Shown here: in pieces, positions 51,377 through 53,173 of the stretch
Numbering within the stretch: position 1 is the stretch's first letter
Layout of the letters: each line of letters starts with the position of its first letter
DNA from: Escherichia phage WPEC2
Direction: 5' to 3' (one strand)
DNA length: 64,000 bases
Sequence record: PV691511.1
Position numbers and translations under genes: made by a program
Notes under the pieces: generated by a model
What the model was told of the DNA's origin: nothing
The model's database searches: none
Seen by the model: the letters and a program-made list of their open reading frames with translations, nothing else

Positions 51377-51719
51377 AAACTGCGTCTGCGTCGATGAGTT
51401 TGTGTTTGTTGTTCCGCATGTAGTCTAAGATAAGTAGACGTTTATTGTATCTGGAGAGATTATGACCCTCTTTTCCGCCATAGTCAAAATATTTTGCAAG
51501 ATCTTTACACTCAAACAAAATCAGTTCGGGAGTTTCTTCACACTGGTCTGTCTGGTACACTTGACGAATGATCATGTATACATCGTCGTCTTCCGCTAAA
51601 TGCTCTACTGGTCCACATCCAGCAGGAACAAATTCATAGTCCCATCGAATCAGATGTTTCTCTACTGCTTCAAAGAAATCTATCCTTTCGTTGCGCATAA
51701 TTTGAACGTCAACTAACAT
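51354..51719 (-). CDS. hypothetical protein
   Basis: 121 aa. Confidence 0.45.
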   Translation of the reverse strand: MLVDVQIMRNERIDFFEAVEKHLIRWDYEFVPAGCGPVEHLAEDDDVYMIIRQVYQTDQCEETPELILFECKDLAKYFDYGGKEGHNLSRYNKRLLILDYMRNNKHKLIDADAVYGYWWMD

Positions 51720-53173
51720 GTTTCCTCCTCTCTCATTATTCCACCTGCTTGGTTGATAGCACTTAAGACGATAGCCAAATCCTCGCGCAGGAAGGTTTCA
51801 CTATGACCATCTTTCATGTGCAAGCGTTCTACACAGCCAATAGACGGTAGAATCTGATCAGTCTTAGACTTTAGCTTACTCTCTAACGCCCTGCAAGCCT
51901 GATAGGACGGCAGATCGAACAATGCTATACGGCGCATAGAGTAATTGTTGTTTGCATTCTGCCCTTTGATCCTGATATCGCTGTCCTTTGCAATCCCCAA
52001 CTTGTAAGCTCCCGTGTCTTCTCCGTACTCATCAAGAATAATATTGATGTAAAATTCTTGCATATTTCTGTTCTTACAGCTTGGACAACCTTTCCCATTG
52101 AGATAATCGGTAGGTGTGATCGTTTGCTCTCCATGCTCCCTACACAGATATTTAAACTTTCTGTTATTGCTTACCTTATCAATGAATCCTATAAATTGAT
52201 CCCCTCGTTCCTGGCAAGCTTTGGTCATACGGTAGGCCCATTGTTCAGGAGTGTAATGATAATATTTAGAACAACGGCAAGGAAGGCCACCCCTTTTCAA
52301 ATGACTCATCTTCATCTCAAATTTATTATCGCATAAGCCTTCTTTACAATAATCATCCTCTGCACATATAGGACATTCTACAATCCAGTAAACCTGACGA
52401 CCTAATCTATCTACTCTATCGCTACGATAATATTTACGCTCTACATTATCAGGACAAGCTTTTATAAAATCTTCAACATGTTGCTTATCCTCCATTGTAT
52501 TCCTTTGTTTCGTCATTTCTCTTTGACAACCGTAGCATCCAGTTCCTTGTTTAGCACTGTTTACAGTGGTAGTGCACCACTGACCATGAACCTTACACTC
52601 ACAAATCAACTTAGTGCGGGAACCGTTCCACGGTTCCACATAGCCTCTAACAATCCAGGGTTTTTCTTTATAGGCTTCTTCTACTTCTTCTTTATGTTTC
52701 TCCCACGCAATCGATGTTCTTTCTCTGTTTGCTTCTCCCATACACTTCCTGCATCCACTCCCGTTTTTCGCAGAAGATATAGAAGTAGACCTCCACTCCC
52801 CATGTAAAGCACAACAACAAACCAGTTTAGTATTCCATCCTTTCCATTCTCCGTGCCATCCTATAACAGTCCAAGATTTACCTGCCTGATTGTAAGTGGT
52901 TTGCACTTCTTCTTTATGTTGCTCCCATGTTTTTGATTTGTTTATAGATACTGCTTTCTTTATAATCTCCCTACAGCATTTTGGACAACCCCTCCCTCGT
53001 TTAGCGGTATTTATGCTTGTTGTTTTCCATTCTCCGTGCAGAGCACAGATGCATCTAAGTTTAGTTTTATTGCCGTTCCACGGCTCAATATAATCTACAA
53101 CAGTCCAACACTTACCTTGATAAGCTTGTTTTATATCTGTTTTATATTGTTCCCAAGTAACTATTTTTGGCAC
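51713..53173 (-). CDS. protein with three ~60-aa Cys/His-rich repeats plus C-terminal domain
   Basis: 486 aa; three tandem units each with W..Y...CW.V...PWNG..TKL.C.C..HGEW.T....AK.G.GC..C. Confidence 0.5.
   Translation of the reverse strand: MPKIVTWEQYKTDIKQAYQGKCWTVVDYIEPWNGNKTKLRCICALHGEWKTTSINTAKRGRGCPKCCREIIKKAVSINKSKTWEQHKEEVQTTYNQAGKSWTVIGWHGEWKGWNTKLVCCCALHGEWRSTSISSAKNGSGCRKCMGEANRERTSIAWEKHKEEVEEAYKEKPWIVRGYVEPWNGSRTKLICECKVHGQWCTTTVNSAKQGTGCYGCQREMTKQRNTMEDKQHVEDFIKACPDNVERKYYRSDRVDRLGRQVYWIVECPICAEDDYCKEGLCDNKFEMKMSHLKRGGLPCRCSKYYHYTPEQWAYRMTKACQERGDQFIGFIDKVSNNRKFKYLCREHGEQTITPTDYLNGKGCPSCKNRNMQEFYINIILDEYGEDTGAYKLGIAKDSDIRIKGQNANNNYSMRRIALFDLPSYQACRALESKLKSKTDQILPSIGCVERLHMKDGHSETFLREDLAIVLSAINQAGGIMREEETC

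Follow-up and report, generated by a model that had tools for sequence, protein, structure and literature searches.

The longest open reading frame of the window, i.e., of the whole stretch of 64,000 nucleotides of DNA analysed here, encodes a 486-aa protein composed of five CapR-type putative zinc modules and a C-terminal GIY-YIG/T5orf172-like nuclease domain. The reading that best explains its domains, its conserved residues and the variation at its locus, to which we assign a probability of roughly 0.75, is that the gene is a free-standing homing endonuclease of the T5orf172 branch of GIY-YIG nucleases, residing in an intergenic gap of Phapecoctavirus genomes.

The gene lies on the minus strand and starts with a GTG codon. 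The window itself is assigned to Phapecoctavirus (phAPEC8-like coliphage, Stephanstirmvirinae); over 4.2 kb it shows 100% identity to the Escherichia phages WPEC4 and WPEC6, and about 20 other records are 95–97% identical to it. The gene and the elements at its two ends are the following:

51713..53173, minus strand: complete endonuclease gene, GTG at 53173 and stop at 51713-51715 (assigned by phrog_681, Pfam CapR and the RefSeq product name)
53179..53185, minus strand: ribosome-binding site AAGGGGA, 5 nt 5' of the GTG, as read off the sequence
53240..53257, no strand assigned: GC-rich hairpin (ATGCCCC-GCAA-GGGGCAT) just past the ATPase stop, with a run of T after it on the coding strand
51713..51719, minus strand: 7-nt overlap between the end of the endonuclease gene and the start of a gene for a 121-aa protein (ATG at 51719)

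At the overlap, the end of the endonuclease reading frame reads through the ribosome-binding site and the start codon of the 121-aa gene, the ribosome-binding site GGAGGA being located inside the last codons of the endonuclease gene. On the coding strand, an AAA/P-loop ATPase gene (53263..54402, phrog_2376) is found upstream of the endonuclease gene, and a gene for a NADAR/YbiA-like N-glycosidase (50623..51165) follows downstream, separated from it by two small genes; the statement of the original prediction that the gene is positioned directly upstream of both the ATPase and the NADAR gene was therefore wrong. No promoter-like site was seen in front of the gene, and together with the GTG start and the terminator-like hairpin upstream this may indicate a low expression, as is usual for such genes. 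A tblastn search of the window returned no paralogue of the 486-aa protein.

The protein contains 30 Cys, 12 His and 16 Trp residues. Both the 486-aa reading frame, which proved exact, and its three tandem Cys/His-rich units had been predicted beforehand and were borne out, the similarity of unit 1 to unit 3 (BLASTP E=1e-26) being far beyond chance. The units span residues 5-78, 81-155 and 156-228, so that the predicted unit length of about 60 residues describes the conserved core, whereas the period is about 75 residues. Pairwise, the units are 44–51% identical in protein and 59–67% in DNA sequence; a recent tandem duplication was considered and is rejected because the protein identity amounts to 44–51%, and Tandem Repeats Finder did not detect the three units at the DNA level, at which they are too diverged. 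The positions shared by all three units are a W, the Tyr of an AY/TY motif, W.V, W.G..TKL.C.C..HG.W and AK.G.GC..C. Several further positions predicted to be invariant recur in only two of the three units; in 'CW.V' this concerns the C, in 'PWNG' the P and the N, and in 'HGEW.T' the E and the T. The closest shorter homologues possess a single N-terminal module that is most similar to unit 2 (56–65%), although unit 3, and not unit 2, is its counterpart in a colinear alignment of the DNA.

The repeats are not restricted to these three units. The Pfam CapR homology domain PF21817 matches the whole protein in five stretches (E=1.5e-27, 96 bits), and a hidden Markov model made from units 1-3 picks up a fourth relative at residues 310-369, which is part of module 5; unit 1 and unit 5 are also similar in direct comparison (E=5e-7). 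Scanned singly against the PF21817 gathering cut-off of 24.2 bits, unit 4 reaches 41.7 bits and unit 5 reaches 34.7 bits, units 2 and 3 come to 24.4 and 24.6 bits, and unit 1 alone stays slightly below the cut-off with 23.0 bits. The five modules with their putative zinc ligands are:

52940..53161, minus strand: zinc module 1 (residues 5-78), CapR E=9.3e-5; putative ligands C43, H46, C63 and C66, with an extra C41
52709..52933, minus strand: zinc module 2 (residues 81-155), CapR E=3.4e-5; putative ligands C121, H124, C141 and C144
52490..52708, minus strand: zinc module 3 (residues 156-228), CapR E=3e-5; putative ligands C193, H196, C213 and C216
52256..52489, minus strand: zinc module 4, diverged (residues 229-306), CapR E=1.3e-10, the top-scoring stretch; C267-x2-C270...C299-x-C301
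52058..52255, minus strand: zinc module 5, diverged (residues 307-372), CapR E=2.1e-8; putative ligands C344, H347, C363 and C366

In modules 1-3 and 5 the putative ligands follow the pattern CxxH, 16-17 residues, CxxC. Module 4 has the pattern C267xxC270, 28 residues, C299xC301, which is the CxxC...CxC type described for CapR (PMC8096241), in which the spacing is CxxC, 24-26 residues, CxC. Across 22 homologues, all four putative ligands of module 5 as well as C267, C270, C299 and C301 of module 4 are invariant, and so are three of the four ligands of module 3 (C193, C213 and C216). An AlphaFold2 model of the whole protein (mean pLDDT 78.6, pTM 0.43) depicts a flexible string of small domains, with a pLDDT of about 90 in module 4. 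Each module is predicted to consist of a helix, three strands, a short helix and a long helix, with the first putative ligand pair placed at the hairpin turn and the second where the long helix begins; in module 1, C43 and H46 lie where strand 38-43 turns into strand 47-53, and C63 and C66 are at the beginning of helix 64-77. A ligand layout with one pair at a hairpin turn and one at the start of a helix is that of a treble-clef zinc finger, and it agrees with weak matches to DUF4379, a 'treble clef' family, and to DUF723, as seen for module 1.

The idea of tandem zinc modules that bind nucleic acids is thus supported by homology, since units 1-3 each match PF21817 with E values of 3e-5 to 9e-5, and the family matched, CapR, is a Cys-dependent zinc finger rather than one lacking metal binding. 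From this relationship we infer that the modules bind zinc and DNA. The earlier view was right in this respect and incomplete in others, as it overlooked two of the zinc modules and the nuclease domain: of what had been taken as one distinct C-terminal domain, about 115 residues are nuclease-like, and the rest (residues 229-372) consists of the two further diverged CapR modules. The modules also have to be judged with respect to an RNA-binding zinc-ribbon protein or an HNH-type endonuclease, a reading that we regard as very improbable. The latter is favoured by a secondary match to the 'HNH endonuclease' family phrog_559 (E=2e-23), but this match, over residues 8-247, spans zinc modules alone, which are common to several endonuclease classes, and an HNH Pfam domain was not detected even at E<=1-10. 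Similarly, RNA binding is hinted at by a faint match to the Pfam dsRNA-binding domain (E=0.037) and by weak matches of the whole model to dsRBD partners in Foldseek, all of which, however, are non-significant (E about 0.04 or more; probability <= 0.15).

The remaining C-terminal part of the protein carries the nuclease-like domain:

51725..52057, minus strand: GIY-YIG/T5orf172-like nuclease domain (residues 373-483)

Folded alone from a 22-sequence alignment, this domain is modelled with high confidence (pLDDT 91.2, pTM 0.85), and its predicted fold shows the three-stranded sheet with flanking helices by which GIY-YIG domains are recognised. In 35 diverse homologues Y375, K391, G393, R401, E431, G456, E459 and T460 are invariant, and these residues are located on strands 1 and 2, at the beginning of helix 1, in helix 2 and directly ahead of the last helix. 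Y375, R401 and E459, which occupy strand 1, the beginning of helix 1 and the stretch preceding the last helix of the domain model, respectively, are likewise invariant in the set of 22 homologues and, judged by these secondary-structure positions, would correspond to the catalytic Tyr and Arg and the metal-binding Glu of GIY-YIG nucleases such as I-TevI or Slx1. Residue 390, at the position of the 'YIG' Tyr, is not conserved, and K391-x-G393 is. When the domain was compared with the BFVD viral models by Foldseek, the neighbours were named CapR homology domain-containing, homing endonuclease, GIY-YIG, T5orf172 and MUG113, the first of them being the identical 486-aa protein of phage ESCO13.

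Profile matches to the named nuclease families are weak. The C-terminal 119 aa score 13.8 bits (E=0.088) against Pfam T5orf172 (PF10544), which is below the gathering score of 20, and the T5orf172/MUG113 matches of the other alleles of the locus are sub-threshold as well (E 0.0076-0.015). Among the 22 relatives, six match T5orf172 and three match MUG113, with a best E of 0.0043 and none at the gathering score. Taken together, the matches of the other alleles and of six relatives lie at E 0.004-0.016. The whole 486-residue model gave nothing significant against the PDB in Foldseek (best E=0.1), a PDB sequence search with the single protein yielded no relevant match and one with a nuclease-domain profile built from 35 sequences only chance matches (E>0.2), and the 486-aa protein has no match in NCBIfam. 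The weak T5orf172 match could be taken as a sign that the protein is a nuclease-dead, endonuclease-derived DNA-binding regulator resembling CapR, which would place its zinc array on promoters. Such derivatives do exist, as CapR itself is a domesticated one that represses the capsid operon (PMC8096241), and I-TevI also acts as a repressor (PMC10448857). Nevertheless, we consider a regulator of this kind distinctly unlikely, because the GIY-YIG-like fold is complete and confidently predicted and the Y, R and E residues are invariant in 35 diverse homologues, which argues for selection on catalysis. With a C-terminal nuclease of the GIY-YIG/T5orf172 type, the protein is therefore read as a (homing) endonuclease, as it is annotated in RefSeq and PHROG.

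The PHROG family phrog_681 'endonuclease' matches residues 5-483 (E=7.8e-79), the RefSeq product name in phages that are 96–98% identical is 'endonuclease', and the allele of phage SKA64 is called 'putative homing endonuclease'. Relatives found by tblastn occur in 409 phage records, among them the 'putative homing endonuclease' Gp165 of ICP1. An exhaustive search of 1.84 billion representatives returned 8651 relatives at E<=1e-3, some of which match in as many as 12 stretches, and the family is therefore very large. The CapR domain was defined by Netter et al. (2021), who traced it to T5orf172 homing endonucleases of ICP1, and replacement of the four conserved Cys by Ser abolishes DNA binding of CapR in gel shifts (Netter et al., 2021; PMC8096241). 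Zinc fingers of the CapR, DUF723 or DUF4379 type are present in 87% of 229 T5orf172 endonuclease genes, they are often repeated like 'beads on a string' with repeats that recombine, and the nuclease activity of the T5orf172 protein Odn requires a conserved Glu (Barth et al., 2023; PMC10448857). As judged by its predicted domains, the architecture of the 486-aa protein is exactly that of these repeated-zinc-finger T5orf172 endonucleases (PMC10448857). The family is already known: it has curated entries in Pfam and PHROG, RefSeq and UniProt annotate it, and two papers describe it. The finding mostly has annotation value, as the gene is entered as 'hypothetical protein' in many GenBank records of this group of phages, and a safe label is CapR-zinc-finger/T5orf172-type (GIY-YIG superfamily) putative homing endonuclease.

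What is mildly new is a series of alleles with one, two and three N-terminal modules, together with an empty site, at one locus. All alleles are found at one place, with the AAA-ATPase gene on one side and the 121-aa gene on the other:

486-aa allele: this window and ZCKP1, the ZCKP1 protein being 98% identical to the protein of the window
402-aa allele: anhysbys (gp075), 34% identical to the protein of the window
326-aa allele: SKA64 and phAPEC8 (phAPEC8_00253), 38% identical to the protein of the window
337-aa allele: phiWec179, 68% identical to the protein of the window
51746..53232, minus strand: variable cassette, comprising the endonuclease gene without its last ~10 codons plus the leader, which is replaced or absent in relatives

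The flanks of the 486-, 402- and 326-aa alleles are 94–99% identical to the window, and those of the phiWec pair, phiWec179 and phiWec188, are more diverged. The alleles of the other phages share an A-B-A'-nuclease core, which represents the base plan of the family, and the same overlap with the ribosome-binding site and start of the downstream gene. The longer alleles gain one or two A-type modules at the N-terminus, so that the number of N-terminal A-type modules is 1, 2 or 3, the allele of the window having three. Against SKA64 and anhysbys the BLASTN breakpoints are at 51745 and at 53233/53260.

A clean empty site is present in phiWec188, in which the GC hairpin again comes after the ATPase stop and leads, via a short spacer, to GGAGGAAAATTATG of the 121-aa gene, the whole spacer between the ATPase gene and the 121-aa gene measuring 45 nt. 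The sequence GGAGGAAA..ATG at the overlap with the 121-aa gene recurs in this empty site. In phiWec179, with flanks that are ~97–98% identical to phiWec188, the endonuclease gene is located between the hairpin and the ribosome-binding site of the 121-aa gene; the hairpin at 53240..53257, found in both phages, accordingly forms the upstream edge of the insertion. Six of the 25 mismatches between the ATPase genes of phiWec188 and phiWec179 lie within the last 19 nt, all of them synonymous, and the downstream gene has three mismatches within its initial 28 nt. The clustering at the end of the ATPase gene suggests a target site or a co-conversion tract. A search for such target-site immunity changes around the window's own allele is not informative in this respect: only 3 of the 19-25 ATPase-gene mismatches are within the final 22 nt, where a phage that carries this very allele also differs. 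Among the records listed, phiWec188 is the one with a clean empty site and belongs to a diverged sub-lineage with flanks 74–80% identical to the window, and an empty-site partner for the 486-aa allele itself was not found among them. Phage EP57 also lacks the gene, owing to a 1541-bp deletion through which its ATPase gene and its 121-aa gene have become fused, but its genome looks heavily deleted or badly assembled.

Polymorphism at one precise site, in presence/absence or in the allele, is the mark of a free-standing homing endonuclease and is found here. The classic signature of a selfish endonuclease gene is seen in the intergenic position, in the empty site and in alleles that diverge strongly between conserved flanks. 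These observations also bear on the tie to the ATPase and NADAR neighbours that had been implied by the original prediction. Such a functional link is rejected: the gene is absent or replaced while both neighbours stay conserved, and the ATPase and NADAR genes, being kept with or without the endonuclease, are therefore not functionally tied to it. A counterpoint to homing is that the locus is occupied in nearly all relatives, i.e., in almost every Phapecoctavirus record listed, which is also compatible with a useful gene that has been domesticated. The zinc array of such an Odn-like or exclusion nuclease would be directed to DNA of a satellite, a co-infecting phage or the host, serving the phage and not the gene's own spread. 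T5orf172 nucleases have been co-opted before, as is the case for Odn of ICP1, with putative Odn-like genes in the coliphages Inny, Muut and Mt1B1_P17 (PMC10448857), and the strict conservation of the nuclease residues would fit this reading, just as a varied module number would suit an arms race. We nonetheless judge domestication to be unlikely, since the signature described above is a selfish one, RepA_N was not found in the 486-aa protein by Pfam, and PADLOC has no match for it.

For the homing endonuclease, we propose the following mechanism. The five zinc modules would fold independently like beads on a string and jointly read a long DNA target, and the C-terminal GIY-YIG-type domain would cut near the bound target, using the invariant Tyr375, Arg401 and the presumed metal-binding Glu459. 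If a co-infecting relative has no copy of the gene, or a different allele of it, repair of the break would use the genome with the endonuclease as its template and would copy the endonuclease gene with its flanks into the other genome. By analogy to the family, the 486-aa protein is expected to cleave DNA, to have a target site and to home actively. The number of N-terminal modules (1, 2 or 3) probably sets or extends the target specificity.

A further-reaching proposal, which we put forward only as speculation and regard as improbable, is that the junction between the ATPase gene and the 121-aa gene is an arena in which endonuclease alleles displace each other by the stepwise gain of zinc modules, or that it holds a co-opted exclusion or anti-satellite nuclease. 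If this were true, the increase from one to two to three N-terminal modules would retarget or lengthen the recognition site, and the 486-aa allele would cut genomes with shorter alleles, i.e., a super-homing by module accretion. How module number relates to target specificity is a question raised by Barth et al. (2023; PMC10448857), and the allele series described here might be a test bed for it in T5orf172 endonucleases, a T5orf172 homing endonuclease with a mapped target having not been found in the literature searched.

Among known systems, I-TevI, a T4-like GIY-YIG homing endonuclease, differs from the 486-aa protein. The nuclease domain is N-terminal in I-TevI and C-terminal in the 486-aa protein, and I-TevI binds DNA via a helix-turn-helix and minor-groove elements, whereas repeated zinc fingers are predicted to do so here; the single zinc finger of I-TevI serves as linker and distance ruler (PMC10448857). 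Sequence similarity to I-TevI, Seg proteins or Slx1 was undetectable in PDB searches with the single sequence and with the profile. A close counterpart is Gp165 of the Vibrio phage ICP1, which itself has the paralogues Gp174, Gp121, Gp53 and Gp130, all of them putative T5orf172 homing endonucleases with CapR-homology domains (Netter et al., 2021; Barth et al., 2023). The similarity to Gp165 is colinear, with 29% identity over 327 residues (E=1e-29) and a match that starts at residue 175 in module 3. Gp165 contains four CapR stretches and a weak T5orf172 match (18 bits, sub-threshold) in the same domain order, and both genes are free-standing in lytic phages and encode putative homing endonucleases. 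They differ in lineage, Gp165 originating from a Mohonavirus vibriophage and the 486-aa protein from a Stephanstirmvirinae coliphage, and the 486-aa protein, unlike Gp165, has five modules with a threefold N-terminal expansion, which mostly carry CxxH...CxxC and not CxxC...CxC. The same type of zinc-finger DNA-binding module is present in the PLE CapR, a protein encoded by the satellite that represses the capsid operon of ICP1 and is the founding member of PF21817. Module 4 shares the exact CxxC...CxC motif of CapR, the Cys residues of which CapR needs for DNA binding. PLE CapR, however, is a repressor that is homologous to the endonucleases in the N-terminal DNA-binding domain alone, while the 486-aa protein combines five such modules with a conserved nuclease domain.

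The gene for the AAA-type ATPase (phrog_2376; window 53263-54402, minus strand), which lies upstream of the putative homing endonuclease gene on the coding strand, encodes a protein that is 100% conserved across phages with very different endonuclease alleles. Over its 1140 nt the gene differs at 16-25 nucleotides, in every case synonymously, and this indicates that it is under strong purifying selection. Its labels vary among the records and include Hda-like regulatory inactivator, FtsH-like protease, or plain ATPase. When the empty site of phiWec188 (locus L004, 2604-2670) is compared with the occupied site of phiWec179 (locus L006, 3607-3670), which contains a 337-aa endonuclease allele, 6 of the 25 mismatches in the ATPase gene lie within its final ~20 nt. 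These clustered differences are all synonymous and adjoin the insertion point, equivalent to window 53263-53285, and the end of the ATPase gene is a candidate for the recognition site of the endonuclease or for a co-conversion tract.

In Escherichia phage vB_EcoM_EP57 (OR544956; locus L005, 1881-3386), a deletion of 1541 bp corresponding to window 51732..53272 removes the entire endonuclease gene together with the final three codons of the ATPase gene, and the resulting ORF of 501 aa is an in-frame fusion of the ATPase to the downstream 121-aa gene. As the EP57 genome comprises just 130.7 kb and shows several further gaps relative to the window, this deletion may be an assembly artefact instead of a natural empty site.

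The NADAR gene (window 50623-51165, minus strand) is named "GTP cyclohydrolase II" in several GenBank phage records. Its sole matches are NADAR PF08719 (E = 1e-35), TIGR02464 "riboflavin biosynthesis intermediates N-glycosidase" and the PADLOC candidate PDC-M42C, and the cyclohydrolase label is probably an annotation carry-over. An AT-rich intergenic region is located 3' of this gene (window 50075-50450), and it contains the following elements:

Window 50076-50112 / 50118-50154: imperfect palindrome, 37 nt
Window 50195, 50285 and 50333: AATTTTCCTAAACTTTAAATTTTG-like motif of ~29 nt, present in three copies

These elements may constitute a regulatory or promoter cluster, and a repeat_region is annotated at the corresponding intergenic region in the record of the related phage anhysbys.

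The metagenomic homologue P0002 (669 aa) is a single ORF containing two full A-B-A' zinc-module sets, with CxxH..CxxC modules at 45, 196, 379 and 533 and CxxC..CxC modules at 119 and 456, and it looks like two endonuclease genes joined head to tail. Four phage records (MG065650, MG065645, MG065639 and MG065689; "Campylobacter phage B15/A145/A150/A110a") carry Campylobacter jejuni phage labels, and these host labels look doubtful. MG065650 shows ~98% DNA identity to the coliphage window. The other three resemble Justusliebigvirus coliphages in their matches to it: the ATPase genes of MG065639 and MG065689 are ~72% identical at the DNA level, and MG065645 has a 38% match to the endonuclease at the protein level.
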